This document shows positions 14,045 to 60,301 of a stretch of 64,000 bases of DNA, in pieces; position 1 is the first letter of the stretch; each line of letters begins with the position of its first letter. The position numbers were made by a program, and so were the translations under genes. Below the pieces are notes generated by a model. That model was not told where the DNA came from. It ran no database searches and was given only the letters and a program-made list of their open reading frames with translations. Where the stretch lies: assembly GCA_001782035.1 (NCBI GenBank), contig MFNL01000001.1:2643-66642 (forward strand), in the 5' to 3' direction. This DNA is from Candidatus Levybacteria bacterium RIFCSPHIGHO2_01_FULL_37_17 (GTDB taxonomy: Bacteria > Patescibacteriota > Microgenomatia > Levybacterales > UBA12049).

Positions 14045-15772
14045 CTACTTCTTTTTATACTGATTTTCATAGAGTCTTTTAATTTCACTAACCTGCGTTG
14101 CATCCTCTGCGCTCTTATCTTTACCTCGAAAAGAGACCAGTCGTGGAAATCTTAGCGCAAAACCTAACTCACTTTCTGTTTTACCAGCTGTGTGTAAAGG
14201 AGAGCGAGTTATTTCATCGGCCAAAACTTCTATTACAATTTCTGGTGCAATCCAAACAGATGGAACAATAAGACTATTTACTCGAGCTGGTTTATGATCT
14301 ACCTTTATTTTATCTGCTCTCTTGTGGATTTCTTTCCACTCCTCATCTGTTAACCCCGTGCCAATTCTTGAAATTGAAACGAATTCGTCTTTGTCCTTTT
14401 CGTAAACTCCAACCAAAAGTGCCCCTGCTCCGAAAGCAGTTCGCTTGCCGCGCCCGGCAATATAGCCTAGTATCACGCAATCAATTGTGTCGGATAACTC
14501 CCCATCGGAGTGTCTTTTTAACTTTACCCAATTAAAGTTGCGGCCACCTGCCTCATACGGGCTTTGCAGCTTCTTAACTACCAAACCTTCCAAACCTTTT
14601 GAAATAGCGTCTTCAAGAAGAATTGAAAGCTCTTTTGGATCTCCAACTGTCTGATTTTTGGTACGAATCAAAACTCCGTCCTCTTTTATGGTTTCTTTAA
14701 GTATTTTGATGCGCTCTGTTAATGGTTTATCTAAAAGCTGCTTACCATCTTTATATAAAATGTCAAAAACAAATGCCTTTAGGGGAAGTTTAATCGCAGC
14801 TTCCTCGATTCCATGTTTTCTTCGCCTTTTGGTAGTCTCTTGAAAGGGCAAGAATTCTTCGGAATCAGGATTATAAGCAAGAGCCTCGGTGTCTAATATT
14901 GCCGTTTTTGCTTTCACCTGTGAAAGTGCTCCTTTAATGAGCTCCGGAAACATATGCGTCATCTCCTCTAAATTTCTTGAAAACATCCGTACTGTATCCC
15001 CGTCTTTATGGATTTGAACCCGAAAGCCATCATATTTATACTGAACGTCAACTTGGCCCATTTTTTCAATTACCTTTTCCGCTGTCGGAAGGCGTTCACA
15101 AAGTTCAGATCTTATTGGAGAACCTACTCTTACTTGCAGTTTTTCAACTGACCCTAGCCCTTTTTCCCACAAAGTTTTAGCAATCAGGCCTAAATCCGAA
15201 GTCCTGTTGTACGCTCCTTCAAGAAGTTTTCTCTTGGATTTGTCTCCCAATTTTGCTGTAGCTAGTGCATCAAGAATTGTAGGATCCCCAATTCCGAGTC
15301 TCGTGTTTCCAAGCGGAATTCTTACAAGATGCTTTGCCGATACTGCATCCACTTTTTTTAGTAATCCAGAAAGAAGCGCTTGTCTTTTTTCAACTGTCCC
15401 CTCACCCTTTGTTTTTGCAATCTCCCTTAAAGTCTCAAAAGCTTCCGATACTGTTAAGTTAGAGCTCTTTGAGGTTTTGGCAAGCTCATATGCAGTTTTA
15501 CCCATGTCCCCCAATTTGTTAAACAAACTTAGCACTTTTTCTTTATTAGAACCGTACGCGTTTGCAAGTGCTGCTGCAACGCTTTTTTCAGCCATCCCAA
15601 TTTCGGTTGCTTCAAAAAATGGGGCAATTCTTCCTTGAATTAAATAAACTATTTTTTCAATTTCAGAAGCCGGTGTTTCTTTAAAAAGTTGGGACAAAAT
15701 TTCTATTAAAGAAAGCCGCGAAGACGTTTCTTCAAGTTTTTCTAAATATTGTGTAAATTTACTAAATTTCAT
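14045..15772 (-). CDS. lig: ATP-dependent DNA ligase (archaeal/eukaryotic LigI type)
   Basis: KYDGFRVQIH adenylation motif I (KxDG), full ligase I domain order, 575 aa. Confidence 0.85.
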   Translation of the reverse strand: MKFSKFTQYLEKLEETSSRLSLIEILSQLFKETPASEIEKIVYLIQGRIAPFFEATEIGMAEKSVAAALANAYGSNKEKVLSLFNKLGDMGKTAYELAKTSKSSNLTVSEAFETLREIAKTKGEGTVEKRQALLSGLLKKVDAVSAKHLVRIPLGNTRLGIGDPTILDALATAKLGDKSKRKLLEGAYNRTSDLGLIAKTLWEKGLGSVEKLQVRVGSPIRSELCERLPTAEKVIEKMGQVDVQYKYDGFRVQIHKDGDTVRMFSRNLEEMTHMFPELIKGALSQVKAKTAILDTEALAYNPDSEEFLPFQETTKRRRKHGIEEAAIKLPLKAFVFDILYKDGKQLLDKPLTERIKILKETIKEDGVLIRTKNQTVGDPKELSILLEDAISKGLEGLVVKKLQSPYEAGGRNFNWVKLKRHSDGELSDTIDCVILGYIAGRGKRTAFGAGALLVGVYEKDKDEFVSISRIGTGLTDEEWKEIHKRADKIKVDHKPARVNSLIVPSVWIAPEIVIEVLADEITRSPLHTAGKTESELGFALRFPRLVSFRGKDKSAEDATQVSEIKRLYENQYKKK

Positions 15773-15773: not shown

Positions 15774-16835
15774 TTATGCCATTATATACTTTGCGCCTTT
15801 TGTAACCCCATGTTTTTTAATTATTCCAACTTTTAGTAGTGCTTTGAGCTCGTTTAAAATTGTGTCCTCGGAAATCATGGGAAACAAGCTTTCAAAAGCT
15901 TGATTCTGCAAATATCCCACTTTTTGGATATATTCTATGATTTTAAGCTGCCTAGGGGTTAGCAAAATTGGTGACCCACCTAACTTCTCTTTGAGCTTCG
16001 CATCAATTGAAATTGTTTCTACTTTTTCCCTTATTTTTAATAGTTCGTATGATAGGCCCAGCGTATAGTATTCAAGCCATTTTGTTAAATCGCCCTCTGA
16101 TTTTTCAACACTTTGCAAAGCTTCGTAATACTTAAGAGCATCTTTGTCAAAATATTCTTCCAAAGAGAAAAAGCGTCGAATGTCATATCCTTCCAAAAAT
16201 AATATTAGGGTTGCAAAAGCGCGAGCCACTCTTCCATTTCCATCCAAGAAGGGATGAATTCTTACGAATTCGTAATGAACAATTCCAGACTCCAAAACCG
16301 GATGAATATCCTGTTCTTCTGAGCTTTCTGTAAACTCCAATAGATCTTTAATTTGGAATGAAACAGCAACTGCCATTGGGGGCCTAAATGAAATTTCTCC
16401 GGTTTGAGAGTTTTTAACAACCACCTGGGTTTTTCTGTACACTCCGCATTGCGCTTCCGGCAAAATTTTATTAACCGTCATTTTATGAAGTTCCTTAATT
16501 AAATCTTGATCTATTTTTACTTCTGCATCCTGCATTCTTAAATTTTCTATGTACCCCAGTACTTTTCTATAATTTATAACCTCCTGTACATCTCTTTCGC
16601 GTGCTGCAACATTCTGCCCCATCAAAACTTTTTCCGCCTCTGTAAAATTAAGTTCGTTTCCCTCGATATGGGTTCCGTAATGAACACTTCGAACAAGTGC
16701 GTCTTCTCTAAATTCCTTTTCAAAATAGGGCAAAAGAGGTGCGTGGTCTATTATTTCTTTGGATGCTTCGATGCTTCCAATATTTTTGAGGATCTGGTTG
16801 CTAATATAAAATTTAGGCTTGTACATGCGTAACAA
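15774..16835 (-). CDS. fic: Fic-family protein (AMPylation-type) with C-terminal winged-helix
   Basis: HPFLDGNGRVARAF is the complete Fic motif HxFx(D/E)GNGRxxR. It ends 1 nt before the ligase start. Confidence 0.8.
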   Translation of the reverse strand: MLRMYKPKFYISNQILKNIGSIEASKEIIDHAPLLPYFEKEFREDALVRSVHYGTHIEGNELNFTEAEKVLMGQNVAARERDVQEVINYRKVLGYIENLRMQDAEVKIDQDLIKELHKMTVNKILPEAQCGVYRKTQVVVKNSQTGEISFRPPMAVAVSFQIKDLLEFTESSEEQDIHPVLESGIVHYEFVRIHPFLDGNGRVARAFATLILFLEGYDIRRFFSLEEYFDKDALKYYEALQSVEKSEGDLTKWLEYYTLGLSYELLKIREKVETISIDAKLKEKLGGSPILLTPRQLKIIEYIQKVGYLQNQAFESLFPMISEDTILNELKALLKVGIIKKHGVTKGAKYIMA

Positions 16836-26075: not shown

Positions 26076-27260
26076 TTAAAGCCAGGATTTTTTGAGAGTG
26101 GAGAAAGAATTATCAAGAATTGACTCTCTTATTTTTTTTGTTAAATTGAGAAGAAAGTGGACGTTATGCAGGCTCAATAAATTGTAGGAAAGTAGTTCGC
26201 GAGAACGGAATAAATGATGGATATATGCTCTACTAAAATTTTGGCACGCATAACATTTGCAGTTTGAATCTAGTGGTTTTGAATCTTGCCGGTATTGAGG
26301 CTTATCGATATCTGTTCTAAATCTATTTTTGATGTTACCTAATGGTGGTGAAATAAAAAAGAAACCAGTTCTGCCTATTCTTGTAGGAATTACGCAGTCG
26401 AAAGTATCTATTCCACGCTCTATTATTTCAAAAATATCATCAATTTCTCCAATTCCTAGCTGATGTCTTGATTTATCCTCAGATACATTTGCAACTGTCC
26501 AATCAATTACTTCGTACAAATTCTCTTTGTTTAAATGCGCCCCTCCCAAAGCAATGGCATCAAAATTTTTATCAACAAACTTTGCTGACTCAATTCTCAA
26601 TTCCCTGAATTTTCCTCCATGTGTTACTCCAAAAAGAAGCTGGTTTTTGTTTTTATGAGCTTTTTTTGAGCGTATTTCCCAACGATTTGTTAGCTCTAAG
26701 CTCTCTTTTGTCTTCTCAAAATTGTATTTGGGAGATTCCAAATCATCAAAGCAAACTATTAAATCTGCTCCCAGTTTTTCCTGAATTTCAATTGAGACTT
26801 CTGGACTTAATTTATGAGTCGAACCATCTATATGGGACTGAAAAGTAACTCCTTCTTCCGTAATTTTATTTAGTCTTGGCTTTGCTTCCTGCTCGATTTC
26901 ATATTTAGATTCATCCCGCAAAAACTTAACTCCTCCGCCTTCTTTTCCAACTCCTAAGGAGAAAACCTGAAATCCTCCGGAATCTGTCATAGTCGGCCCG
27001 TTCCAGCTCATCCATTTGGAAAGTCCCCCGAGTTTTTTAATGAGATCCTCACCGGGTCTAAGATGTAAATGGTAAGTATTTGCCAAAACTATTTGTGCAC
27101 CAGCTTCCATAAGCTCTCTTGGTGAAATCGCTTTTACGCTTCCTTGTGTCCCAACAGGAATAAAAGCAGGCGTCTCAATATCTCCATGAGGAGTTTTAAT
27201 TACCCCAGCGCGTGCTTTTGTCTTTTTATCTTTTTTAAGTATTCGGAATTTAGGCTTCAT
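26076..27260 (-). CDS. tgt: queuine tRNA-ribosyltransferase
   Basis: TPHGDIETPAFIPVGTQGSVK N-terminal TGT motif and CKCYACQNFSRAYIHHL zinc site (CxCxxC...H). Confidence 0.9.
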   Translation of the reverse strand: MKPKFRILKKDKKTKARAGVIKTPHGDIETPAFIPVGTQGSVKAISPRELMEAGAQIVLANTYHLHLRPGEDLIKKLGGLSKWMSWNGPTMTDSGGFQVFSLGVGKEGGGVKFLRDESKYEIEQEAKPRLNKITEEGVTFQSHIDGSTHKLSPEVSIEIQEKLGADLIVCFDDLESPKYNFEKTKESLELTNRWEIRSKKAHKNKNQLLFGVTHGGKFRELRIESAKFVDKNFDAIALGGAHLNKENLYEVIDWTVANVSEDKSRHQLGIGEIDDIFEIIERGIDTFDCVIPTRIGRTGFFFISPPLGNIKNRFRTDIDKPQYRQDSKPLDSNCKCYACQNFSRAYIHHLFRSRELLSYNLLSLHNVHFLLNLTKKIRESILDNSFSTLKKSWL

Positions 27261-27297: not shown

Positions 27298-27795
27298 ATG
27301 GCAGCTGAGTTTCTTGTAGATTTAGAAGCGAGAATAAAAAGAACGGAAGCAAATGATCCAGATAGAAGTCTTTTTCGTGGTGTCCGCCAAATTACCAAAG
27401 CCTATCTTCGCGCAAGTCAAGAAAAACCTGCAAAAAAAGAAATGCCTTTGGAAGAAAGAAGAGAAGTTCTCGTCCAACGCCTCCATAATATGTTTAGAAA
27501 TGTGCCTGACGATACTCCCATCGGCATTGTAGTTCCCAAATTCAAAATTTCTGCTTCAGACAAGGAAAAGCTAGATTCTATGCAACATTATCCCGAATGG
27601 CATGCTATCGTCATCGATACAGATCCAAGAGATAGACAACTATTGTGGAGCATTTCCCGGTTGTATACTGTAGGTTTCTATCAAACTTTTGGTGAATTAA
27701 GAAGAGCACCTGAAGAGTCTTATTTATCTGTTCGTGTAATTGGCGAAAAAACAGCTCATTTTATAAAAAGAGTTTTCCCTACGCCTACAGATTAA
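27298..27795 (+). CDS. hypothetical protein
   Basis: 165-aa ORF on the opposite strand between tgt and murD; no family recognised. Confidence 0.35.
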   Translation: MAAEFLVDLEARIKRTEANDPDRSLFRGVRQITKAYLRASQEKPAKKEMPLEERREVLVQRLHNMFRNVPDDTPIGIVVPKFKISASDKEKLDSMQHYPEWHAIVIDTDPRDRQLLWSISRLYTVGFYQTFGELRRAPEESYLSVRVIGEKTAHFIKRVFPTPTD

Positions 27796-29110
27796 GTTTT
27801 CCTACTTCTTTTTTAAACTGCTCGCCGCGGTCTTTGTAGTTTTTAAACATGTCAAAAGAAGCACATGCCGGCGTTAGAAGAACTACATCACCAGAAAGAG
27901 CAATTTTAGATGCAGCCAAAACAATTTTCTCCATACTGTCTGCGCCTTCAATCAAAAGTATTTTGGAATTAGGCGACATTTCCGCTTTTATTCTTTCCCA
28001 TTCTTTTCCTATTCCAATTATTGCTTTTATATTCTTTTTTGAGCTCAAAACCTGGCCTAGTTCTTCGAAATTGCTGTTTTTAGAAGAGCCTCCAAGTATT
28101 AAAATTTCCGGATTTTCGAAAGACTCAATTGCCGCGATCGCAGCTTCAGGCACGACGGAAAACGAATCATTATAATATTCCACTCCGTTTACTTTACCAA
28201 CTAGCTCTAATCTGTGCTCGAGTCCTTTAAATGTTTTTAAAACTTCTTTTATATCCTCTACTTTTACTCCTTCCAAAAATGCGGCGAGCGCGGCAGAGCA
28301 CGCGTTTTCGAAATTGTGCTCACCTCGCAAGCCCAACTCACTTGTCTTAACTACCTCAATGTTCTCTCCGTTAGCTCGAATAACTATTTTTCCGTCTCTT
28401 GCAAAACACCCTTCCTCGACTTCGCGCTCTCTTGAGACAAAATAAACTTTTCCCTCAGTAAGAATGTCCGATTCGATACTGGGAGGATAGTCCCTATTAA
28501 GAATCGCAAAATCAGACTTAGTTTGAAAACGCAGAATATTTCTTTTGGCAGAGATATACTCCTCTACCGAGTCGTGATAATTTCTGTTGTTGGATCCGTC
28601 AAGATGGTCAGATGTAACCATTAACATTACTCCAATATGAGGGCTTTTGTGGAGATCCTGTAATTGGAAACTGGACAGTTCTAATACTACAACTGCCGAG
28701 GAATTTAATTGTTCAATAAATTCAAGAGGGGCCTTGCCTATGTTGCCGCCTAAATATACATCTTTTCCACTTTTTTTCAACATTTCATAAATTAATGTTG
28801 AAGTTGTTCCTTTTCCTTTGGTTCCGGTTACACCAATAATAGGACATGGACACATGTCAAAAAAGAGTTTTGTCTGAGAAGTAATTTTAGAAGTTATTTG
28901 TTCTGAATTATGAGTTATAAGTTTGCTAATTTTAATGCCGGGGGAACGGACTATTAAATCATATTTATCCAAACCGTCCAAGTAACTTTCCCCTTGAGAG
29001 ATGTCTAGAATTGTGACGTCTGCGCCTTTTCCTTTAAGAAATTTAGCGCTCGATTCTCCCTCAACAGCCTTACCAATTATAGCTATTTTTTTTTTGTTAA
29101 AGTCTTTCAT
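27785..29110 (-). CDS. murD: Mur ligase, MurD-like (UDP-MurNAc-L-Ala--glutamate ligase)
   Basis: GVTGTKGKGTT P-loop, N-terminal Rossmann-like domain of MurD, 441 aa. Not embedded in a dcw cluster in this window. Confidence 0.75.
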   Translation of the reverse strand: MKDFNKKKIAIIGKAVEGESSAKFLKGKGADVTILDISQGESYLDGLDKYDLIVRSPGIKISKLITHNSEQITSKITSQTKLFFDMCPCPIIGVTGTKGKGTTSTLIYEMLKKSGKDVYLGGNIGKAPLEFIEQLNSSAVVVLELSSFQLQDLHKSPHIGVMLMVTSDHLDGSNNRNYHDSVEEYISAKRNILRFQTKSDFAILNRDYPPSIESDILTEGKVYFVSREREVEEGCFARDGKIVIRANGENIEVVKTSELGLRGEHNFENACSAALAAFLEGVKVEDIKEVLKTFKGLEHRLELVGKVNGVEYYNDSFSVVPEAAIAAIESFENPEILILGGSSKNSNFEELGQVLSSKKNIKAIIGIGKEWERIKAEMSPNSKILLIEGADSMEKIVLAASKIALSGDVVLLTPACASFDMFKNYKDRGEQFKKEVGKLNL

Positions 29111-30323
29111 AAAACTTCATTAGGGAATCTTCCTTATATTCATCCCTCTTTGATGCTATTTCTAATGCTTTTTTAGCTTCCTGAGGGGTTCCAACACATT
29201 CAAACGGCTTAAAACCAGAAACTCCAATTGTTTCTTTAAGAAGAGGCAAAAGCTTCTCGTCCTCAAATAAATTTTTACCAAAAATTCCGATCAGCTCCTG
29301 CTTTGGAATAAAAGCCGAAAGTAGAATAAAAACAAATAAGCATTTTGGGCACTCACCACACCATCTTTTTCCCTTATTTCGATCATCGGAATTGATTTTA
29401 AAATTCCTGTTACAAGATGAAAACACGGTGAAATATTTATTATATTTTGAGAAAATTTCCGTTATTTCAAACTCATCTAGCTCTCTAAGATAGGACGAAT
29501 ACTCTACGTCTGGGGTTATAAATTTCTGCGAATAATCTTGGAATAAACGTTCGAATTCTTCTGATTTACTCCACTGGTGATTTATCTCCTCGCCTAAATA
29601 GTTTACGTTACCAAAGTTTGCGCTTTTTTCATTAGATACCACCACTTCTGAATAGTCGTAAAAAGCTGCAGCCATAATTCCCAAAAAAGCATAGATCGCA
29701 GATACGGGAACGTGACCATTATAGGTGTCTTGCCTCTGATTTAGTTCAAAAAGTTTAGTGTCTAATTCTGTTTTGATAACAATAGGAATCTTCCCTATAA
29801 TTTTTGCTATTTTTAATGGAATAGCGTGTTCTCCTATCATTAGGATATCAAACGGCTTTTCCATCTCTTTGAATTTTTCCGAAGTAACAATAGAGTCTTT
29901 TCCGCCACCCAACAGCACGAGAGACCGAGTTTTGCGCGGTATAGAGATAACGGAAGCGGCATTCACTTCATAAGGAAATTTAATAAGTCCTCTATAATCA
30001 ATCTTATTCTTGTAGAAAAACTCCCCAAGACCTTTTGTATAGACTTTATTCCAAAAGTCGGCCTGCTCTCGGTTTAAGCTATTTTTTTGAATTATGATTT
30101 GTTTTGGGCAATATAACTTCCAGTAGCTAATTCCCAATATCAAACTCAGATTATCAAAAATCTTTTTTAGAAACTGTTCTGGGATTTCTGCTTCTACTGA
30201 AGGGAAATAAATTTTTTCGACAAATTGATGACTTTCTTCTCCTTCAACTGAATAATCAAAGGAGGCTTGACCTTTCTCAAGGTCATATGTATAACCTTTG
30301 AATGTGAATTGAATGCTATTCAT
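29097..30323 (-). CDS. PP-loop (adenine nucleotide alpha-hydrolase superfamily) ATPase with C-terminal Cys cluster; function unknown
   Basis: LLGGGKDS PP-loop (SGGxDS-like) at ~aa 135, C-x17-CGECPKC cluster ~180 aa downstream (QueC-like spacing); 14-nt overlap with murD start. Confidence 0.5.
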   Translation of the reverse strand: MNSIQFTFKGYTYDLEKGQASFDYSVEGEESHQFVEKIYFPSVEAEIPEQFLKKIFDNLSLILGISYWKLYCPKQIIIQKNSLNREQADFWNKVYTKGLGEFFYKNKIDYRGLIKFPYEVNAASVISIPRKTRSLVLLGGGKDSIVTSEKFKEMEKPFDILMIGEHAIPLKIAKIIGKIPIVIKTELDTKLFELNQRQDTYNGHVPVSAIYAFLGIMAAAFYDYSEVVVSNEKSANFGNVNYLGEEINHQWSKSEEFERLFQDYSQKFITPDVEYSSYLRELDEFEITEIFSKYNKYFTVFSSCNRNFKINSDDRNKGKRWCGECPKCLFVFILLSAFIPKQELIGIFGKNLFEDEKLLPLLKETIGVSGFKPFECVGTPQEAKKALEIASKRDEYKEDSLMKFYERL

Positions 30324-30366
30324 TGAGGCTAATTATACTTATATTGAGGGCCTTAAGCAAGAAATG

Positions 30367-30438
30367 TACCAGGGGTGGGGATCGAACCCACGACCGCAGG
30401 GATATGAATCCTGTGCTCTACCACTGAGCTACCCTGGC
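30367..30438 (-). tRNA. tRNA-Met (anticodon CAU), elongator-like
   Basis: Cloverleaf read by eye: acceptor GCCAGGG/CCCTGGT (G1:U72), D-arm GCTCAGTGGTAGAGC, anticodon loop TTCATAT, T-arm GTGGGTTCGATCCCCAC; CCA not encoded. Confidence 0.75.
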
Positions 30439-30497: not shown

Positions 30498-30566
30498 CGC
30501 GGGGTAGTGTACAGTGCACGTGAGGCTCATAATCTCACAGGCTAGGCGCAACTCCTAGCCCCGCAA
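30498..30566 (+). tRNA. divergent initiator-like tRNA (anticodon CAU; C1xA72; noncanonical T- and D-loops); possibly functional tRNA-fMet or pseudogene
   Basis: Acceptor CGCGGGG...CCCCGCAA identical to E. coli tRNA-fMet ends, anticodon loop CTCATAA. T-loop is CGCAACT (no TTC) and the D-arm is 3 nt short; all four stems pair. Confidence 0.45.
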
Positions 30567-30571
30567 CAAAA

Positions 30572-31318
30572 TTACGGTTTTTGAGCTTGGAGCTTTGCAA
30601 TTGCCTGAAGCGTAAATCCATCCCCTGTTTCCGAAAGAAGCCTTGAATTAAAAAATTTTATTCCTTCCGGCTTTATTTTTTCATTAAGCTCTCTAATCTG
30701 TCCCTGCAGCTGCGGCGTAAATTTATATACATCTCTTCTTGAATCTTCTATAACTTTTTTGGTTCCATCTGGATTGACCTCGACTCTTTGACCTTTTCTT
30801 TTTAGTACTACCTCTTCGGATTTTACTTCCAATCCGAAAAACTTAACGCCCTCACCCTTTCTTGTATTTGCTACGAAAAATGCAGAATTAGGATTAACCC
30901 CTCTTCTGCCTATTGGTTTAATTCTTGAACCTAGGCTTTCTACACCCGTTTCCATTGCAAATTCCCTTTCTGCGGTATCTTGGTGTGATTCTTGAGGAAG
31001 AGAAAATCCCCTAGAAGCTTCTGTTGAAAGACCGCCCATTTTTTTTCTTTCCTGCCTAATGGTTCCAACGAATAACTCGCCGTCTAGCCAAAAGTAAGGA
31101 ATTGTGACAGATCCTCCGCCGTTTGGCTCTCTAATTGCCCATCCGTCGTATCCTTCCGGATTTTGACCATAAGAAACCTCAACGCCCATCCTGGCATTTT
31201 GTGATTTTAAAGCTGCAAGCTGTATTTCAGAGGTATTTCCTTCAAAATCTGTAGATGTTGCTTCCCAGCCTTGTTTTTCCCTATCAGGAACCGGCTGTAG
31301 AAAATCTTTTCCTTCCAT
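30572..31318 (-). CDS. NUDIX hydrolase-like protein
   Basis: GFSLPQESHQDTAEREFAMETGV fits Nudix box Gx5Ex7REUxEExGU with one deviation. Confidence 0.55.
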   Translation of the reverse strand: MEGKDFLQPVPDREKQGWEATSTDFEGNTSEIQLAALKSQNARMGVEVSYGQNPEGYDGWAIREPNGGGSVTIPYFWLDGELFVGTIRQERKKMGGLSTEASRGFSLPQESHQDTAEREFAMETGVESLGSRIKPIGRRGVNPNSAFFVANTRKGEGVKFFGLEVKSEEVVLKRKGQRVEVNPDGTKKVIEDSRRDVYKFTPQLQGQIRELNEKIKPEGIKFFNSRLLSETGDGFTLQAIAKLQAQKP

Positions 31319-31767: not shown

Positions 31768-32628
31768 ATGAAACAAGTAAGCCTCCGCTCTGCCCTCGAG
31801 GAGTTTAAAAATTTTCTTAAAAACAACCAGAAAAGCAACTCAACAATAGTTGCATATGGTAAGGATATCGACCAGCTTTTAAGCTTTCTGGAAGGCCTGG
31901 GAAGGGCTGAAATAAGCCAAGTTAGCCGAGAGGATTTGGAAGGATTTTTAGCCAAACTTTCCAAGGAAGGATATACTCCAAAGTCAGTTTCCCGAAAAAT
32001 AAACTCAATTAGGACTTTTTATAGATTTCTTAAGGTTTCGGAATATATAGACGAGGACCCCTCGCTTTTAGTTTCCCACCCTAAATACGAGCTTGCACCG
32101 CCTAGAATTTTAACTCCAACAGAATATAGAGCATTGCGGGATGCTGCAAGATCGGACGGCCGAATGTTTGCAATAATCGAGCTTTTACTTCAAACGGGAA
32201 TTAGAATTGGAGAGCTTGCAAATTTAAGGCTATCTGACGTTGGAAAAGACACATTGCACATACTTCCCTTTGAAAAACACGAGGAAAGAACTATTGCTTT
32301 AAATAAAAGAGCTCAAGAAGCGTTGCAAAGATATATGACGTTGCGGCCAAAGGTGGTAGATGATCATTTGTTTGTTACCAAGAGCGGAAAGCCGTTTTTG
32401 ATTAGAAATATTAGAACCGCGGTAGAAAGATACTTTAGACTTGCAGAAATTCAAGCTGCAAAAGTTAATGATCTAAGGCATACTTTTGTAGCCCACCACT
32501 TAAAACACGGGGTCTCGCTGCAAGTATTGAGTAAAACGCTTGGCCACAAAAGGCTTTCTACAACCGAAAGATATCTTCAATACGTGCCCGAACGAGGCAA
32601 AGATACCTCGGTACTCACTGAACTTTAA
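31768..32628 (+). CDS. tyrosine recombinase XerC/XerD-like
   Basis: N-terminal SAM-like core-binding domain; catalytic R..HxxR..Y (LRHTFVAHHL...RLSTTERYLQY). Confidence 0.8.
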   Translation: MKQVSLRSALEEFKNFLKNNQKSNSTIVAYGKDIDQLLSFLEGLGRAEISQVSREDLEGFLAKLSKEGYTPKSVSRKINSIRTFYRFLKVSEYIDEDPSLLVSHPKYELAPPRILTPTEYRALRDAARSDGRMFAIIELLLQTGIRIGELANLRLSDVGKDTLHILPFEKHEERTIALNKRAQEALQRYMTLRPKVVDDHLFVTKSGKPFLIRNIRTAVERYFRLAEIQAAKVNDLRHTFVAHHLKHGVSLQVLSKTLGHKRLSTTERYLQYVPERGKDTSVLTEL

Positions 32629-33005: not shown

Positions 33006-33006
33006 G

Positions 33007-33078
33007 TGCTCCCGCTTGGATTCGAACCAAGGACATCTACTTTATAAGAGTAGCGCTCTACCACTGAGCTACAGGAGC
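33007..33078 (-). tRNA. tRNA-Ile (anticodon UAU)
   Basis: Acceptor GCTCCTG/CGGGAGC, D-arm GCTCAGTGGTAGAGC, anticodon stem CTACT/AGTAG with loop CTTATAA, T-arm CTTGGTTCGAATCCAAG. Confidence 0.7.
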
Positions 33079-33093: not shown

Positions 33094-35463
33094 TCAGAGG
33101 CGGGCGCGTTGGGCAATAATAGGCTCCAATTTATTTACAGGAACTCCATACTTTATTCTTGAAAGTTCTCTTATTAACTCTGCAACCCTGTTATTCTCTG
33201 CCTGTTTTTCCTTAGTCATATCTCTTGTTAAATCCATAGAAAAAGATGTAACAGGCTCGTTATTAACTATTGTTTTAACATAGGCATTATAAACATCAAC
33301 ATTTATTAAATCCGCCTCGGTAAAGGTAGGCTGGAATTCGTGCTGTAAATAATTAGCGTCCGTTACTCCGACTCTAAATGCAGCTAGTGTTCCAACATTT
33401 CCAAAAATTGCGTTTTTAACTTCCTCATCCATCTGCCCTATAAACTGGTTTGCAACTATTAAATTGAGCCTGTATTTTCTTGCTTCAGACAAAATCTGGG
33501 CAAAATCAGGGGTGGCAAAATTTTGAAACTCGTCTACGTAAAGGTAAAAATCACGCCTTTGGTCTTCCGGAACATCTTGCCTGCTCATTGCAGCAACTAA
33601 AATTTTGGGGACTAAAACTAGTCCTAAAAAGCTCGCATTTTCTTCGCCTATTTTTCCTTTTGACAAAGAAACGAGTAATATTTTACCTTCATCCATTGCT
33701 TTTCTAAAATCAAACGCGCTTTTGCTCTGCCCAATTATGTTTCTCATCATTTTGTTGGTAACAAATCGGCCGAATTTGGAGACAATATAGTCCAAGGTTT
33801 CCGATTTGTGGAAGTCTGAAGTTTGAGCAATCTGGTCTGTCCAGTAGCGCCGCACAATTGGATCGGCAACTTTAGGCAGAAGTTCTTGTACAAAAGACGA
33901 GTCGGTTAAGGCTCGGACTACTTCGATGAACGTGTTGCCCGGCTCGCTCATTACGGTTAACATTGCATTTCTTATAGCATGCTCAAAGCGGGGGCCTATT
34001 ATTCCGGTTTTGTTGGGATCATAAAGCTTATACATGAGTCCTACAATTGAGCTTACAATGTAGTGTTTTTCCTGCTCGGTTTGTGCCTCTAGCATGTTTA
34101 ATCCAAGCGGCATTTCGGTGTCTGAGGGATCAAACAAAATAACATCTTCCGCTCGCTCGGGGGGGATTAGGGGCAGCAGTTTATCAATAGTATCATGCGG
34201 GTCTATAAAGCAGACTCCTTCGCCATTTTTTATATCCTGCAAAATCATGTCTTTTAAAAACTCTGATTTCCCAGTTCCTGTTTTCCCTATTACATACATG
34301 TGTCTTCTTCTGTCGTCTTTTTGAATGTAAACGGGTTTTGCCATACCTCTGTAAGTGCTCATTCCAAGATAAAGGCCTTTGTCGGGAATTTGCACTGGAG
34401 CTGGCGCTTTTTTGGCATTTAGCCAGAAAATGTGGGGCGTCTGGATTGTCTTATTTGGGTAATGGTAGAGCCCGGCAAGCTCCTCACTTGTTAAAACGGA
34501 AAAGTTTCCGGTTGCAGGAAAGTAACGGTATATAAAATCAGTAATAAAGCTTCCTTTTAAAAATTGCTTTTGTTTTGTAAATTCATTAAATGATGCAAAC
34601 TGGTCAAACGCAGACTCCAAGTTATGCAAATGAGCCTCGGCTGCTTCCTTGGTAGACGAAGAAACAACAAGTCTTATTACTGTGTAAAACCCAGGTTTCC
34701 CGATTTTTTGCTCTACTGCTTCAAGCTCTTTTGGGTCTGATGAGTATTTTGCTGTTTCAGGATTTGATTCTCTTTTTTTTGTATCTGCAATGTAAGTACG
34801 GCCTAATTTGCTCCACTTTGAATCTGCTCCCGATATTAAAATCTGGATTGCCGCGCCTTCCCCCACGCTCATTTTTGCCAAAACCGAAGTAATTGAAGAG
34901 AGAGGATCCACAGCAAATTCTTTGTAAAATTTAAGTGGTTTATAATTGCTGTCCTTAAGCTTAAGAGTCTTATAGGCAACGCTTCCGGACTCTGAGAAAA
35001 TGTTGTACTCGTTGCCTAAAATATAGCCTTCCTTGGAATAGCGGGAAGTTGTTTCTTCAACTACTCTGATTTCAGCATCTGGGTATGAGGCATTTATCTG
35101 TTTTTCGACCATATCCTTGTATTTGTTGGGGGTGTAGATGAAAAAACGGATATCGCCGGGCATTCCTACAATTTCAAAAGAAATATGAGGCCTATACTTT
35201 AGAAATTGTAGCCTTCCGCTTGATTTTATTCCTGCAAAAGCGCTGAAAAGCTGCTCTGCCGCATCTATTTTTATTTCATTATCCCGAGGAAGCGCCACTT
35301 GAAGAAGCGTTGAGTCAAGGGAGTGTTTTTCCCGCTCTCTGTTTCGATACCAAATTGCCCAAATGTAAGCAAAGCCAGCCAAAGCTGCGGTTATCAAAGC
35401 AAGAGCTCCTGCAGTTATTACTAATGCAAATATCAAATTTGTAAGTGCGACTAAAGGATTCAT
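33094..35463 (-). CDS. membrane-anchored HerA/FtsK/VirD4(TraG)-superfamily P-loop ATPase
   Basis: N-terminal ~35-aa hydrophobic anchor, Walker A VIGKTGTGKSEF, Walker B FYLYVDEFQNF (DEF as in FtsK/VirD4), 789 aa. Confidence 0.55.
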   Translation of the reverse strand: MNPLVALTNLIFALVITAGALALITAALAGFAYIWAIWYRNREREKHSLDSTLLQVALPRDNEIKIDAAEQLFSAFAGIKSSGRLQFLKYRPHISFEIVGMPGDIRFFIYTPNKYKDMVEKQINASYPDAEIRVVEETTSRYSKEGYILGNEYNIFSESGSVAYKTLKLKDSNYKPLKFYKEFAVDPLSSITSVLAKMSVGEGAAIQILISGADSKWSKLGRTYIADTKKRESNPETAKYSSDPKELEAVEQKIGKPGFYTVIRLVVSSSTKEAAEAHLHNLESAFDQFASFNEFTKQKQFLKGSFITDFIYRYFPATGNFSVLTSEELAGLYHYPNKTIQTPHIFWLNAKKAPAPVQIPDKGLYLGMSTYRGMAKPVYIQKDDRRRHMYVIGKTGTGKSEFLKDMILQDIKNGEGVCFIDPHDTIDKLLPLIPPERAEDVILFDPSDTEMPLGLNMLEAQTEQEKHYIVSSIVGLMYKLYDPNKTGIIGPRFEHAIRNAMLTVMSEPGNTFIEVVRALTDSSFVQELLPKVADPIVRRYWTDQIAQTSDFHKSETLDYIVSKFGRFVTNKMMRNIIGQSKSAFDFRKAMDEGKILLVSLSKGKIGEENASFLGLVLVPKILVAAMSRQDVPEDQRRDFYLYVDEFQNFATPDFAQILSEARKYRLNLIVANQFIGQMDEEVKNAIFGNVGTLAAFRVGVTDANYLQHEFQPTFTEADLINVDVYNAYVKTIVNNEPVTSFSMDLTRDMTKEKQAENNRVAELIRELSRIKYGVPVNKLEPIIAQRARL

Positions 35464-45336: not shown

Positions 45337-47574
45337 ATGGCTCAAGCCAAATATGGTATCATTGTGAATGTGAAAAAGAGCAACTTTTCTTATTATTTAA
45401 CTAGGGTTAAAGGTTTTCCAAGAATTCATTTAATCGCAGCTGCTTTGTGCTTGATTTTCCTTGGGGCATTTTACTTCTATATATTAAAAGACCTGCCTCT
45501 TCCTACAAATCTGTCTTCTTCATCAAACCCAGAGACGACTTTAATTTATGATAGAGATGGAAAGATTTTATACAATATCTACGACAAGCGAAACCAAATA
45601 TCTATTCCACTTGCTTCTATGCCCAAACATTTAAAGGAAGCGACACTTTCTATAGAAGATAAAAATTTTTACCACCATGGAGCTATTGATTTAAGGGGAA
45701 TGACAAGAGCAGCAATATCAATTGTTTTCAGGCAGCAAATACAAGGCGGCTCAACTCTAACCCAGCAGCTTGTAAAAAACAGCCTTCTTACCCAGGAAAG
45801 AACAATCCCCCGCAAAATTAAAGAGATCCTTCTTTCTTTTGCTACAGAATTTCTCTACACAAAAGACCAGATTTTGGAAATGTATTTAAACCAGACTCCT
45901 TACGGAGGCCTGGCTTATGGAGTTGAGGCGGCCGCAGATACTTACTTTGGAAAACACGCGAAAGACTTAACTCTGTCTGAGGCTGCACTTATTGTAGGGC
46001 TTCCGCAATCCCCAACCCGTTATTCTCCTTTTGGGGCCCGTCCTGAGCTTGCAAAAGCAAGACAACTTGAGGTGCTGAAGAATATGGAAGAAGCAGGATA
46101 TATAACATCTGCGCAGAGACAAAAAGCAGAGGGCGAAAAATTAAATTATAAAACTATTGCAACGGAAATTAAGGCACCGCATTTTGTTTTGTATATAAAA
46201 GATTTGTTGATTGAAAAATATGGCGAAAAGGTAGTAGAAGAGGGAGGATTAAAAGTTACAACGAGTCTCGATTTGACAATCCAAACTGCGGCAGAAGCCT
46301 CTGTTTCTGCACAAATTGACAGCCTCCCAAAATTCTACCACGTAACAAACGGTGCTGCTTTGGTCACAAATCCTTCAACTGGTGAAATTCTTGCAATGGT
46401 TGGAAGCAAAGATTATTTTGATAGCGAAATTGACGGAAATGTAAATTTAACAACTTCGCTAAGACAGCCAGGCTCATCTATAAAACCTATAAATTATGCT
46501 GTTGGTCTTATAAAAGGCTATAGCGCATCAACTGCTTTTGTAGACCAGGCCACCTGTTTTTCAAACCAGGGAGGAAGAAACTACTGTCCGAAAAACTATG
46601 ACAACCAATGGCATGGTCTAACTCAAGTTAGATATGCCCTTGCAAACTCATACAATATTCCGGCTGTTAAAATGCTCAAAACCAACACAATTCCTTCTAT
46701 GATTGCAACCGCATCTGCTATGGGAATAACAACTTTTGAGGATGCCTCAAATTATGGGCTTTCTCTAACTTTAGGGGGAGGAGAAGTGAGAATGACCGAA
46801 ATGGCAACAGCATTCGGAGTTTTTGCAAACGGCGGGTATAGAATAAACCTCCACCCAATACTTAAAGTGGTTGATAAAAAAGGGAAAGTTTTAGAGGAGT
46901 ACTCATCCCCCAAGAGTCCGATTTTTGGCAAAAAAATAATTGAGAGCGGAGTTGCTTTTATAATTTCAGATATTCTTTCTGATAATGGAGCAAGAACTGC
47001 CGCTTTTGGACCAAATTCACAGCTTAGAATAGATGGGAAAACGGTATCAGTCAAAACAGGTACTACAAACGACTATAAAGATAATTGGACAATAGGCTAT
47101 ACACCTTCATTTTTAGTTGCGACTTGGGTCGGGAATTTCGACAATACTGCGATGAGCGGGGTTGTATCTGGAGTAACAGGAGCAGCCCCCATTTGGAACG
47201 ATATAATGTCGTATGTTTTAGCAGGAAAGCCTGATGAACCTCCTTCAAGACCTGCCTCCATTGTTCAAAAACGGGTTTGTCAAGACACTGGGGTTGTTGC
47301 ATCTCTTGAGCAAGGTAAAGAGTGTGCAACAAGACTTGAGTACTTTATAAAAGGAACAGAAGGCGAGAAAAGTCCAATTACTCAACAGGATATATTTATT
47401 AAAAAAGGTTCGGAAGATATTCCTGCCCTAGATGACACAACAGACATTGAGGCTAAAAGCTTTTTGCTTTATGTTGACCCGACCGGGGATAAATATTGTC
47501 TAAATTGCAAAAATCCCGGAGGAATTCCTACTGTAAAATCATCTCCTACTCCAAGCCCTACTCCTTCTCCCTAG
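45337..47574 (+). CDS. class A penicillin-binding protein (PBP1A-type glycosyltransferase/transpeptidase), copy 1
   Basis: GT51 motifs EDKNFYHHGAID and GGSTLTQQL; TPase SSIKP (SxxK), SYN, KTGTT. C-terminal SPTPSPTPSP tail. Confidence 0.85.
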   Translation: MAQAKYGIIVNVKKSNFSYYLTRVKGFPRIHLIAAALCLIFLGAFYFYILKDLPLPTNLSSSSNPETTLIYDRDGKILYNIYDKRNQISIPLASMPKHLKEATLSIEDKNFYHHGAIDLRGMTRAAISIVFRQQIQGGSTLTQQLVKNSLLTQERTIPRKIKEILLSFATEFLYTKDQILEMYLNQTPYGGLAYGVEAAADTYFGKHAKDLTLSEAALIVGLPQSPTRYSPFGARPELAKARQLEVLKNMEEAGYITSAQRQKAEGEKLNYKTIATEIKAPHFVLYIKDLLIEKYGEKVVEEGGLKVTTSLDLTIQTAAEASVSAQIDSLPKFYHVTNGAALVTNPSTGEILAMVGSKDYFDSEIDGNVNLTTSLRQPGSSIKPINYAVGLIKGYSASTAFVDQATCFSNQGGRNYCPKNYDNQWHGLTQVRYALANSYNIPAVKMLKTNTIPSMIATASAMGITTFEDASNYGLSLTLGGGEVRMTEMATAFGVFANGGYRINLHPILKVVDKKGKVLEEYSSPKSPIFGKKIIESGVAFIISDILSDNGARTAAFGPNSQLRIDGKTVSVKTGTTNDYKDNWTIGYTPSFLVATWVGNFDNTAMSGVVSGVTGAAPIWNDIMSYVLAGKPDEPPSRPASIVQKRVCQDTGVVASLEQGKECATRLEYFIKGTEGEKSPITQQDIFIKKGSEDIPALDDTTDIEAKSFLLYVDPTGDKYCLNCKNPGGIPTVKSSPTPSPTPSP

Positions 47575-47634: not shown

Positions 47635-49932
47635 ATGAAGTTTTTAGTTGATTTAATTAATGGGTTATTGTATTTATTCTCGGCAGTTGGGAATTTTGTG
47701 CTGTTTTACCTTAACCTCTTTTTGTGGATATTATTAAGGCTGACTAGCCTTGCCAAAGAAATCGTTGTAAAAGCACATACAAGTTCTTTGCAGAAATATA
47801 GAGGCGTTAAGGAGGCAGTGGCTTACGGTTGGCAGAATTTAGACAAAAAAGGAAAGCTTGCGACATTCCGGTTTTTTTTATCCTATAAGTCTTTCGGGGG
47901 AAAGCTTTCCGTAAAGGAGACAAAGAAACAAAGACCGAAAAAAAAGATAAATTCAGTAACTATATATCCCGCCCCAAAAAATATTTTCTTAAAGCTAAGA
48001 TATTTTGTTTTTGGCTTTTTAATATGCTTTGTTTTTATAATGATTCCTTTAACTCTTTATTTTTTGGTAAACAGCCTACCCAATCCGAAAAGCTTACAAA
48101 ATAGAGAGATACCCCAAACAACAAAAATTTATGATAGAAATAGAAAGCTTTTATATCAAATATACGCAAATGAAAACAGAACCCTAGTTCCCCTTTCTCA
48201 AATTCCCAAAAATTTAATTAATGCAACGATTGCAATAGAGGATAAGGATTTTTATAAAAATCCGGGCTTTGATGTTGCAGCAATTGCAAGAGCGGCAATT
48301 GCAGATTTATCGGGAAAACCGATTCAGGGTGGATCAACAATAACCCAACAGTTAATAAAATCAAGCCTTCTAAATCCTGAGGTAACTATTACTAGAAAAA
48401 TAAAAGAAATTATTCTTGCCTTCTGGGCCGAGAGACTTTACAGTAAAAACGAGATTCTCGAAATGTATTTCAATCAAGTGCCATACGGCGGAACAGCCTG
48501 GGGAGTCGAAGCTGCGTCTGAGACATATTTTGGGAAAAATGTAAAAGATTTAACCATCGCTGAAGCCGCTTTTCTTGCCGGAATGCCTCAAGCGCCTACC
48601 ACTTATTCTCCCTACGGACAAAATCCTAATTTATGGAAGAGAAGACAAACAGATGTTCTTAAAAGAATGAGAGATTTGAAATATATAGACCAGCAAAAGA
48701 TGGAGGAAGCCTTAGGCGAGGAGCTTTCCTTCAAATCACCACGGACTCCAATATATGCACCTCATTTTGTCATGTACGTTAAGGATTTGCTTGTGCAAAA
48801 GTACGGTCTTCCTCTGGTTGAAAAAGGGGGATTAAATGTTATAACGACTCTTGATTTAAATACTCAAAATATGGCCCAAAATATCGTCACAGCAGAGGTT
48901 GACAATGATTGGTATTTAAACCTGACAAACGGTGCAGCTTTGGTCACAAATCCTTCAACTGGTGAAATTTTAGCAATGGTTGGCTCAAAAGACTACAATG
49001 ACCTAAATGGCGGAAATGTTAATTTAACAACTGCACTAAGACAACCAGGCTCATCTATTAAGGTCGTGACCTACTCAGCGGCACTTGAAAACGGATTTAC
49101 CGCAGCGACAATTCTTGATGATTCTCCTGTTGTATATCAGATCCCGGGTTCGGTACCTTATGCACCTGTTAACTATGATGGCGGATTCAAAGGCAAAATT
49201 CCGCTTAGAATTGCATTTGCAAATTCACTGAACGTTCCTGCTGTAAAAACCTTGGCTAAAATAGGAATTTCTACAATGGTTGATACTGCTAAGAAAATGG
49301 GAATAACGACCTGGAAATCACCTCAAAATTACGGTCTTTCACTTACTCTTGGCGCAGCAGAAGTAAAAATGACAGAACTTTCAACAGTTTATGGAACCAT
49401 TGCAAATTCAGGAGAACGAATTGACTTAAATCCGTTTCTCAAAGTAACAAACAGAAATGGCGAGATTTTTTACCAAAGCGAAGAACCGATAGGAAAAAAA
49501 GTGATTGACGAAGGAGTCGCCTACATTATTTCAAATATTTTAGCTGATAATGCTGCTCGGTCTTTAGAGTTTGGCACCAATTCTCCCCTAAATATTCCCG
49601 GGCATGTTGTATCTGTAAAAACAGGGACAACTGACAATAAAAGAGACAACTGGACTGTTGGATTTACACCCAATTTACTTGTTGCAGTTTGGGTTGGAAA
49701 CAATGACAATTCCCCTATGAGTCAGCATCTTGCATCCGGAATAACAGGTGCTGCTCCAATCTGGAATAAGATAATTACAAATCTGCTTTCAGACCAAAAA
49801 AGTGTTGCAACGGCTACGCCTTCAAATCTGATTTTAAAAAGATGTGGTGGAAGAATTGAATATTTTATAAAAGGGACTGAGAATTTATCAAACTGCGCTT
49901 TTTCTGCAACTCCGTCAGCTGCCCCTATCTAG
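47635..49932 (+). CDS. class A penicillin-binding protein, copy 2
   Basis: Same GT51 and TPase motifs (EDKDFYKNPGFD, SSIK, KTGTT). A 33-nt stretch is identical to copy 1. Confidence 0.85.
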   Translation: MKFLVDLINGLLYLFSAVGNFVLFYLNLFLWILLRLTSLAKEIVVKAHTSSLQKYRGVKEAVAYGWQNLDKKGKLATFRFFLSYKSFGGKLSVKETKKQRPKKKINSVTIYPAPKNIFLKLRYFVFGFLICFVFIMIPLTLYFLVNSLPNPKSLQNREIPQTTKIYDRNRKLLYQIYANENRTLVPLSQIPKNLINATIAIEDKDFYKNPGFDVAAIARAAIADLSGKPIQGGSTITQQLIKSSLLNPEVTITRKIKEIILAFWAERLYSKNEILEMYFNQVPYGGTAWGVEAASETYFGKNVKDLTIAEAAFLAGMPQAPTTYSPYGQNPNLWKRRQTDVLKRMRDLKYIDQQKMEEALGEELSFKSPRTPIYAPHFVMYVKDLLVQKYGLPLVEKGGLNVITTLDLNTQNMAQNIVTAEVDNDWYLNLTNGAALVTNPSTGEILAMVGSKDYNDLNGGNVNLTTALRQPGSSIKVVTYSAALENGFTAATILDDSPVVYQIPGSVPYAPVNYDGGFKGKIPLRIAFANSLNVPAVKTLAKIGISTMVDTAKKMGITTWKSPQNYGLSLTLGAAEVKMTELSTVYGTIANSGERIDLNPFLKVTNRNGEIFYQSEEPIGKKVIDEGVAYIISNILADNAARSLEFGTNSPLNIPGHVVSVKTGTTDNKRDNWTVGFTPNLLVAVWVGNNDNSPMSQHLASGITGAAPIWNKIITNLLSDQKSVATATPSNLILKRCGGRIEYFIKGTENLSNCAFSATPSAAPI

Positions 49933-50996: not shown

Positions 50997-51616
50997 TACT
51001 TACCTATTATAACAAGAGCGTCAGAGGAAAAACCATTGGAAAGGTTTGCGGATGTGCTTCCAACGGTATAGGTAAAACCCAAATCTTTTTTCAAAAGATT
51101 TAGAAATTCACTCTTACCTGATTTAACCAGTATGGATACATTTGCATATTCGAAATTATCGGCATTTCCTGTTCCAACAACATTATATCCAAGGTTTTTT
51201 AACGTATCTGAGCCTTTTGATGCCACCCCTGATTCACCACTTCCGTTTTGAACAGTGACAGAAAGCTCGCTTCTGTCAAGCCCTGTTTGTGTATCCACGG
51301 GGTTGATTGTGGGCTTTGGAGTTGGGGTATTTGTAGGAGTTGGTGTTGGAGAATCACTTGGGGAAGGAATTGATGTTTCAGTGGGAAAAACTGTGGGGGT
51401 TAAAACTTTGGGTTTATCATCTACGCTTTCGTTTGTTGAGCCTAGAATTTTAAAAGCAAAAAATATTAATAAAGCCAAAACGACAAGAGCTAAGTAGATA
51501 AATTTTTTGTTTATCTTTCTTTTGGGCGGGGGGAATGTTGGAACCGACTCAAGCGGTGCTTCTTCCATATCCTGCCTTTCAAAGAGAAGGGTATCAAAAT
51601 TTTTTCCTTTTCGCAA
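50996..51616 (-). CDS. LytR_C-domain membrane protein with Pro/Thr-rich linker
   Basis: TM anchor, SPSDSPTPTPTNTPTPKPT linker. C-terminal VTVQNGSGESGVASK...LGYNVV pattern of the LytR C-terminal domain. Confidence 0.5.
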   Translation of the reverse strand: MRKGKNFDTLLFERQDMEEAPLESVPTFPPPKRKINKKFIYLALVVLALLIFFAFKILGSTNESVDDKPKVLTPTVFPTETSIPSPSDSPTPTPTNTPTPKPTINPVDTQTGLDRSELSVTVQNGSGESGVASKGSDTLKNLGYNVVGTGNADNFEYANVSILVKSGKSEFLNLLKKDLGFTYTVGSTSANLSNGFSSDALVIIGK

Positions 51617-51635
51617 GGTACTATTTAAGATTCTT

Positions 51636-51644
51636 TGGTATAAT
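51636..51644 (+). promoter_or_regulatory. extended -10 promoter (TGgTATAAT) for the SpoIID-like gene
   Basis: TGGTATAAT 10 nt upstream of ATG 51654; no clear -35. Confidence 0.25.
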
Positions 51645-51653
51645 AAGAACTCA

Positions 51654-59618: not shown

Positions 59619-59712
59619 GGAGAAGTCGCATAGTTTGGTCCATTGCGAGGGTTTGCTAAACCCTTGAGCCTGAATAAGGCTCGCGTGAGTTCGAATCTCA
59701 CCTTCTCCGCCA
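59619..59712 (+). tRNA. tRNA-Ser (anticodon GCU), CCA encoded
   Basis: Acceptor GGAGAAG/CTTCTCC, anticodon stem AGGGT/ACCCT loop TTGCTAA, long variable arm GAGCCTGAATAAGGCTC, T-arm GTGAGTTCGAATCTCAC, GCCA end. Confidence 0.8.
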
Positions 59713-59715
59713 TTC

Positions 59716-60216: not shown

Positions 60217-60217
60217 G

Positions 60218-60301
60218 CGGAAGGTAGAGGATTCGAACCTCTGAGAGCTTTCGCTCACTGGTTTTCAAAACCAGCGCCATGAACCGCTCGGCCAACCTTC
60301 C
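60218..60301 (-). tRNA. tRNA-Ser (anticodon UGA)
   Basis: Acceptor GGAAGGT/ACCTTCC, anticodon stem CTGGT/ACCAG loop TTTGAAA, long variable arm, T-arm GAGGTTCGAATCCTC. Confidence 0.8.

Follow-up and report, generated by a model that had tools for sequence, protein, structure and literature searches.

How is the D-glutamate of peptidoglycan provided in a bacterium whose murD gene is preceded by a gene for a "hypothetical" PP-loop protein? The question is raised by a locus of Candidatus Levybacteria bacterium RIFCSPHIGHO2_01_FULL_37_17, a member of the candidate phyla radiation (CPR), of which we analyzed a 64-kb stretch of DNA (contig MFNL01000001.1), referred to here as the window. On the reverse strand of the window, an open reading frame (ORF) for a 408-residue protein (29097-30323) is followed by murD (27785-29110), which encodes a ligase of 441 residues. 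The ATG of murD lies 14 nt ahead of the stop codon of the upstream ORF, and the two genes overlap at 29097-29110, ATGAAAGACTTTAA. An initial annotation of this DNA had listed the ORF, its GGGKDS loop, a C-x17-CxxCxxC cluster, and the 14-nt overlap, and we found all of them in place. Judged from the sequence, the overlap of stop and start is a translational coupling. In relatives, the same two genes overlap by 4 nt (L091, L092, and L093) or form a single fused ORF.

Our analysis suggested that the two genes form an operon for an alternative D-glutamate step, in which the epimerase MurL has displaced the glutamate racemase MurI and the pocket of the resident ligase has been retuned. We put the probability of this reading at about 0.7. 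MurL converts the terminal glutamate from the L to the D form and not back, in an ATP- and magnesium-dependent reaction that consumes one ATP and yields AMP (PMC8788868, PMC5808125), and the epimerase activity has been demonstrated for the enzymes of Xanthomonas, Micromonospora, and Salinispora (PMC8788868). The MurL pathway itself is known, and current hidden Markov model (HMM) libraries recognize the 408-residue protein, which GenBank still lists as a "hypothetical protein."

The 408-residue protein is a member of the MurL family

The 408-residue protein matched the NCBIfam model NF041275 (MurL_Xanthmoales) with an E value of 2.5e-109 and a score of 365.7 bits, residues 5 to 406 being aligned with positions 9 to 409 of the 447 in the profile. 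The model carries the name UDP-N-acetyl-alpha-D-muramoyl-L-alanyl-L-glutamate epimerase (NCBIfam NF041275). The precomputed Pfam annotation assigned PF26299 (MurL_N) and PF26298 (MurL_epimerase_C) to the protein, a local Pfam-A scan of the protein gave no useful match, and many of the relatives bear the epimerase name in the Joint Genome Institute (JGI) annotation. A sequence search of the PDB returned no solved MurL and only chance zinc-ribbon matches to Kti11/Dph3.

We then aligned 76 homologues from Levybacteria, Peregrinibacteria, Saccharibacteria, Uhrbacteria, Magnetococcales, and Xanthomonadales. All 28 residues that are invariant in this family alignment are kept in the window protein (Y67, K69, G98, G140, G141, G203, H204, P206, N248, H249, Q250, K253, E258, R280, S303, C304, N305, C322, C325, K327, C328, F330, K372, P373, F374, C376, V377, and G378). 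By its sequence, the protein clearly belongs to the MurL family. The initial annotation had been reminded of the MurD2/MurL route by a PP-loop enzyme next to a Mur ligase, and the full-length model match together with the invariant residues bears this out.

Compared with the Xanthomonadales enzymes, the window MurL is homologous over its full length, keeps the PP-loop, the four cysteines, and the NGH, NHQWSKS, and KPFECVG motifs, and is likewise encoded directly upstream of, and coupled to, a MurD-type ligase. An ATP-dependent, AMP-forming reaction would be expected here as well. Unlike them, it is encoded in a CPR genome, is about 40 residues shorter at the C terminus, and is only 38 to 39% identical to the Rhodanobacter MurLs, which score above the equivalog cutoff of the model.

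Predicted fold and putative mechanism of MurL

In the AlphaFold2 (AF2) model, the N-terminal domain of MurL begins with strands 5-14, 19-27, and 31-39, followed by helix 49-63 and further elements, and holds the invariant Y67, K69, and G98. We suggest that this domain binds the UDP-N-acetylmuramoyl-peptide (UDP-MurNAc-peptide). The GGGKDS loop is placed between strand 131-137 and helix 142-154. Within it, the glycines G140 and G141 never vary among the 76 MurLs, which span CPR to Xanthomonadales, and K142, D143, and S144 are each conserved in 97% or more. The fold of MurL matches that of PP-loop enzymes, and, as in these, the first Rossmann-like strand leads into a loop of the SGGxDS type; the core of MurL, as modeled, is a QueC-like PP-loop ATP pyrophosphatase domain.

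The spacer in the cysteine cluster, 17 residues long here, varies from about 14 to 50 residues across the family, while its four cysteines and a fifth, C376, are invariant. By analogy with QueC, the four cysteines most likely hold a structural zinc ion. C376, which is part of the KPFECVG motif, is a candidate acid/base for proton exchange at C-alpha.

QueC-type enzymes begin with the adenylation of a substrate carboxylate, and the QueC-like fold for this reason frames a mechanism for MurL. The GGGKDS loop would bind ATP, and the alpha-carboxylate of the terminal glutamate would be adenylated with release of pyrophosphate. The activated residue could then give up its C-alpha proton, plausibly via an oxazolone-type intermediate, with the invariant C376 and/or an invariant histidine or lysine acting as acid/base. 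Hydrolysis would yield AMP and the D-Glu product, so that MurL would turn the terminal L-Glu into D-Glu at the expense of one ATP.

QueC and Cap9 of the cyclic-oligonucleotide-based antiphage signaling system (CBASS) resemble MurL in the PP-loop Rossmann-like fold and the C-terminal four-cysteine site, and in them too carboxylate adenylation comes first and AMP is released. They differ from MurL in that there is no significant sequence similarity and that MurL has extra N- and C-terminal domains, a UDP-muramyl dipeptide as substrate, and an epimerization in place of amide or nitrile formation. MurL has been described in reviews as having no known domains (PMC5808125, PMC8788868). A QueC-like PP-loop fold would provide the structural basis for its AMP-forming step and is new with respect to the literature searched.

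MurL is widespread in CPR and linked to MurD-type ligases

When one genome per GTDB species was scanned, at least 588 species genomes were found to hold a MurL relative. Among the best 80 of these, for which the locus context was read, most are from CPR, and the others include Rhodanobacter, Lysobacteraceae, Magnetococcales, and Limisphaerales. Of the 80 loci, 69 have a murD-type gene immediately 3' of the MurL gene and in the same orientation. In the remaining 11, it is found 0.6 to 3.7 kb away (5 loci), the contig ends (3 loci), or none was seen (3 loci). Among 1.84 billion cluster representatives, MurL matched 2,631 clusters (50% identity) at an E value of 1e-3 or less.

The two proteins are also found as fusions. 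MurL-ligase fusions of 700 to 860 residues are encoded in several of the genome loci, with 813 to 857 residues in L024, L051, and L055, and about 20 of the best 150 cluster matches are 800 to 900 residues long; all six of the long ones that were checked by Pfam have a Mur-ligase domain. Both domain orders occur, with either MurL or the ligase first. The fusions (L024, L030, L051, L055, L062, and L077; P0383, P0452, P0509, and P0512) belong to Saccharibacteria, Uhrbacteria, Peribacteria, and Microgenomates.

The NCBI entry "hypothetical protein A2798_00205" (OGH02846.1, OGH36482.1) has exactly the sequence of the window protein, and these 408 residues are encoded on 24 contigs. Since both proteins also have thousands of homologues, the pair is not a product of chance. 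The published distribution of MurL and MurD2 covers Xanthomonadales, a few Alphaproteobacteria, and rare actinobacteria, and the route has been proposed as a narrow-spectrum antibiotic target. No paper tying MurL or MurD2 to CPR was found in the literature searched.

MurL occupies the position of glutamate racemase upstream of murD

The locus is collinear in Levybacteria, in the order DUF8128, XerC-like gene (opposite strand), DivIC, two divergent tRNA-Met genes, a variable slot, murD, and tgt. The slot holds MurL in the window and in L091, L092, L093, L005, and L006, and nothing in L089, L090, and L095. In L087, it holds a glutamate racemase (TIGR00067, 216 bits versus a cutoff of 147) and a GNAT gene.

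Scanning metagenomes with the window ligase gave 80 further loci. This ligase and its nearest relatives make up a clade that we call K-type, after the lysine at position 348 (E. coli numbering). Among the K-type ligases of the metagenome loci with readable upstream sequence, MurI lies upstream in 30, neither gene in 34, and MurL in one (L103). With L087, in which the GNAT gene lies in between, MurI thus precedes the K-type murD in 31 loci. These MurI-MurD operons lie outside the division and cell wall (dcw) cluster (L102, L110, L112, L113, L116, L118, L121, and about 23 more), and the typical gap between the two genes is 39 nt. Since MurL is found at the operon position held by MurI in sister genomes, it appears to have displaced MurI in situ.

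Two contigs, those of the closest relatives of the window ligase (74 to 75% identical), end just upstream of murD (L090:1-236 and L094:1-170), possibly because strains differ at the MurL/MurI slot and assemblies break there.

In the 64-kb window, Pfam labels and tblastn revealed no other Mur ligase, no mraY, murG, ftsW/Z, or ddl, and no MurI; a D-amino-acid aminotransferase is likewise absent from the window. The murD gene is thus isolated from the dcw cluster here, as the initial annotation had said.

The partner ligase carries distinct changes in the glutamate pocket

The 441-residue protein is a MurD-type ligase, with 362.5 bits against TIGR01087 (cutoff, 212) and the Mur_ligase_M and Mur_ligase_C domains. 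Its ATP and magnesium sites are intact, the equivalents of K115, N138, E157, H183, K198, and D317 being conserved. We compared the ligases at eight signature positions (182/319/321/348/414/415/416/422; E. coli numbering is used for these positions throughout). At these positions, D F V K A S F Y is found in the window ligase. In the ligases linked to MurL at 67 loci, those of Xanthomonadales among them, the pattern is [ED]-[ILFA]-T-R-[PAST]-S-[YF]-[FY] with rare exceptions; position 348 is always Arg, and position 182 is Glu except in ten ligases with Asp. Among the 120 nearest relatives of the window ligase, all from Levybacteria and 63 to 75% identical, 109 read E-F-T-K-A-S-F-Y.

These positions can be set against published experiments. 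Residues E197, R358, P433, and F435 of MurD2 from Xanthomonas oryzae pv. oryzae (Xoo) correspond to E. coli D182, K348, A414, and L416; the E197D/R358K double mutant switched Xanthomonas MurD2 completely to D-Glu, the P433 and F435 positions brought no change of specificity, and the K319T mutation made E. coli MurD accept L-Glu (PMC8788868). In E. coli MurD, T321 donates a hydrogen bond to the alpha-carboxylate of D-Glu, with which K348 interacts by charge (PMC9780078). The window ligase lacks the proline at Xoo 433 (Ala417) and has the phenylalanine at Xoo 435 (Phe419). The lysine at K319 is lost (Phe317), a change that does not discriminate because MurI-linked Levybacteria ligases also have Phe there.

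Like MurD2 (XOO_1320), the MurD paralogue that adds L-Glu, the window ligase is coupled to MurL; as in MurD2 of Xanthomonadales, its residue at K319 is hydrophobic, and Phe and Tyr take the places of L416 and F422. It differs from MurD2 in having Asp rather than Glu at Xoo 197, Lys rather than Arg at 358, and Ala rather than Pro at 433, and classical MurD2 has neither the change of T321 to Val nor the six-residue, arginine-bearing insertion of the window ligase. It shares only 31% of its residues with Rhodanobacter MurD2 and 49% with the R-type MurD2 found in other Levybacteria. The classical ligases linked to MurL in CPR and Xanthomonadales have E-[ILFA]-T-R-P at the first five signature positions. 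By these residues, the window ligase is not a classical MurD2. In a neighbor-joining (NJ) tree, the K-type clade had 100% bootstrap support and was sister, with 75% support, to the R-type MurD2 of other Levybacteria. The tree included a single canonical outgroup (E. coli) and therefore leaves the rooting of MurD2 versus canonical MurD not established.

A further comparison is with the Levybacteria MurI-MurD operons (such as L087 and L110), which share the locus and its flanks with the window and whose ligases are 64 to 76% identical to the window ligase, with F319, K348, A414, F416, and Y422 in common. At these loci, MurI (with or without GNAT) or nothing precedes murD, and the ligases have Glu182 and Thr or Ser at 321 and mostly lack the insertion. 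When the four K-type ligases linked to MurL were set against 116 further close relatives, the distinguishing positions were located in two short segments of the active site. Asp at 182 (D168 of the window ligase) and Val or Ala at 321 (V319) were each present in 4/4 MurL-linked ligases and 0/116 others. The other separating features are D180 and A/S323, in the numbering of the window ligase, and an insertion G-[SY]-[NG]-[ND]-R-N after DHLD. When the fifth case, L103, was included, D182 together with V/A321 was found in 5/5 MurL-linked K-type ligases versus 0/68 other K-type ligases of known context (Fisher exact P = 7e-8, a value that ignores phylogeny), and all five share the arginine-bearing insertion. 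The replacement of Glu by Asp at 182, of Thr321 by Val, and the arginine insertion beside His183 would amount to a remodeling of the glutamate pocket.

The window ligase is 76% identical to a MurL-less relative (P0123) versus 65% to a MurL-linked one (P0175). A sliding-window comparison gave no sign that the window murD is a recombinant of P0123-type and P0175-type sequences. Since the ligase is nearer to MurL-less relatives and recombination left no signal, the shared changes would be either ancestral with repeated loss or convergent. Five further K-type ligases (P0155, P0169, P0201, P0189, and P0213) have six extra residues at this site (DWGDRN or SVGTQN) with Glu182 and Thr321 unchanged, and may represent intermediates.

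Other features of the window

The coordinates of the motifs and of the neighboring features are collected in Table 1. The divergent tRNA-Met (CAU) pair is found at the same spot in all Levybacteria loci examined, and one of the two could be an initiator tRNA or tRNA-Ile2. The 248-residue ORF beside the pair had no Pfam or NCBIfam match, and tblastn found no counterpart of it in L005, L006, L089, or L091. The 165-residue ORF is a gene call in public assemblies, without a family match; in its place, relatives have other small ORFs or a murD that abuts tgt. The DUF8128 and XerC-like genes beside the locus are syntenic across Levybacteria (70 to 76% identity) and are therefore probably chromosomal housekeeping genes rather than parts of a mobile element. 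With two class A penicillin-binding proteins (PBPs) and a SpoIID-domain protein encoded in the window, the organism clearly makes peptidoglycan.

Table 1. Features of the murL-murD locus and of the rest of the window
Feature	Position in window	Strand	Remarks
MurL N-terminal domain, about residues 1-125	29949-30323	-	From AF2 and Pfam MurL_N; three-stranded sheet plus helices
MurL PP-loop GGGKDS, residues 139-144	29892-29909	-	ATP pyrophosphatase motif where strand 1 meets helix 1
MurL cysteine cluster C304-x17-C322-x2-C325-x2-C328	29340-29414	-	Candidate structural zinc site
MurL KPFECVG, residues 372-378	29190-29210	-	K372, P373, F374, C376, V377, and G378 invariant in 76 sequences
Ligase D168-H169 (E. 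coli D182-H183) and six-residue insertion G172-N177	28580-28609	-	Insertion GSNNRN, with R176
Ligase F317-S318-V319	28154-28162	-	Phe for E. coli K319, Val for T321
Ligase K344	28079-28081	-	Matches K348 of E. coli and R358 of Xanthomonas MurD2; D-Glu ligases also have Lys
tgt	26076-27260		Just downstream of murD
165-residue ORF	27298-27795	+	Shares 11 nt with the 3' end of murD, on the opposite strand
tRNA-Met (CAU)	30366-30438	-	Directly upstream of murL, on the same strand
Promoter-like TTGACC-17-TAAAAT	30475-30447	-	Upstream of the tRNA-Met gene at 30366-30438
Second tRNA-Met (CAU)	30498-30567	+	Divergent from the first; position kept in related loci
248-residue ORF	30572-31318	-	Between DivIC and the tRNA-Met pair
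XerC-like tyrosine recombinase	31768-32628	+	Beside the locus
tRNA-Ile (UAU)	33006-33078	-	Near the tRNA-Met pair
DUF8128/TraG-like ATPase	33094-35463	-	789 residues
ATP-dependent DNA ligase (DNA_ligase_A domains)	14045-15772	-	Adjoins the Fic-domain protein
Fic-domain protein	15774-16835	-	
Class A PBP	45337-47574	+	Transglycosylase and transpeptidase; first of a tandem pair
Class A PBP	47635-49932	+	Transglycosylase and transpeptidase; second of the pair
SpoIID-domain protein	51507-53300	+	LytR_C protein nearby
Five-tRNA cluster	59619-61630		tRNA-Ser GCU, UGA, GGA, and CGA and tRNA-Arg GCG, with short ORFs interleaved

Discussion

If MurL has displaced MurI upstream of murD, the window ligase would be expected to add L-Glu, which MurL would then epimerize. 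How a ligase of this lineage would do so is a more tentative matter. Possibly, though short of probably, a racemase-paired D-Glu ligase was re-tuned to L-Glu by a route other than that of MurD2, in which Lys348 was kept, Glu182 became Asp, Thr321 was lost, and an arginine-bearing insertion was gained next to His183.

Several observations weigh against the displacement of MurI by MurL and the retuning of the ligase. The MurL score of 365.7 bits is below the NF041275 equivalog cutoff of 700, which is explained by the training of the model on Xanthomonadales; the Rhodanobacter MurLs scored 777 and 780, and the homologues of another Levybacteria member (L005) and of a Magnetococcales member (L063), both linked to MurD2, scored 353 and 356. 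The five MurL-linked K-type ligases stem from no more than about three lineages, and branching within the clade is poorly resolved in the NJ tree. The absence of MurI and of a D-amino-acid transaminase is established for the 64-kb window, not genome-wide. The clade of the ligase is normally linked to MurI, with the racemase directly upstream of murD in the 31 loci described above. Finally, D168 and K344 match the E197D/R358K state of the D-Glu-specific Xanthomonas MurD2, and by this only experimental specificity code the window protein looks like a D-Glu ligase. The last three points would also fit a ligase that still adds D-Glu, or accepts both isomers, and that is supplied with D-Glu by an unlinked racemase or transaminase or by a host, with MurL as a rescue enzyme. 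We regard this alternative as rather unlikely, since MurL is found at the exact operon slot of MurI and appears to be translationally coupled to the ligase. Moreover, Thr321, the hydrogen-bond donor to the D-Glu alpha-carboxylate, should be retained in a ligase for D-Glu alone, and it was lost in 5/5 MurL-linked versus 0/68 other K-type ligases. None of the best 120 Levybacteria MurI matches bears the name of this bin, and the window has no MurI.

Two other explanations place the PP-loop protein outside cell wall synthesis. The nearby tgt gene and the "QueC-like architecture" seen in the initial annotation had raised the idea of a 7-deazaguanine/queuosine enzyme working with Tgt. The likeness to QueC holds for the fold; we consider a role in 7-deazaguanine metabolism very improbable. 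No QueC model (PF06508 or TIGR00364) was matched at an E value of 1 or less in Pfam or NCBIfam, and hhalign gave the MurL alignment a probability of 4% against E. coli QueC with only the cysteine cluster aligned, which limits the relation to the fold level. The full-length match is to MurL, whose extra 125-residue N-terminal domain and C-terminal helical domain are not found in QueC, and no queD, queE, or queF is present in the 64-kb window. The conserved partner is murD (69 of the 80 loci, and the fusions) rather than tgt, and the order murD-tgt-trpS-ftsH is kept without MurL in L089, L090, and L095 and with MurI in L087. An enzyme for tRNA modification or another PP-loop enzyme (TtcA/TtuA, TilS, ThiI, or Dph6 type), whose function would explain its place beside the tRNA-Met genes, is hardly credible. 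Matches to these types scored below those to QueC and Cap9, and the HMM comparison, in which the MurL family was matched, gave no match to a sequence model of any of these families. The tRNA-Met pair is also present in relatives without MurL, while the linkage or fusion to a Mur ligase is the conserved feature.

The pairing of MurL with a racemase-type ligase that carries distinct pocket changes is new with respect to the literature searched. With MurL standing in for MurI before the same ligase in a few Levybacteria, and with changes at two pocket positions (182 and 321), at a few neighboring residues, and in an insertion next to them, the recognition of glutamate stereochemistry by MurD, a question of long standing, could be tested with a few point mutants. 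If the re-tuning is true, MurD would have arrived at L-Glu specificity a second time, independently, and the MurI-type and MurL-type ligases of Levybacteria would form a near-isogenic natural set from which the residues that set the stereochemistry could be read. The broad distribution of MurL among CPR/Patescibacteria, likewise new with respect to that literature, alters the picture of a route confined to a few genera.

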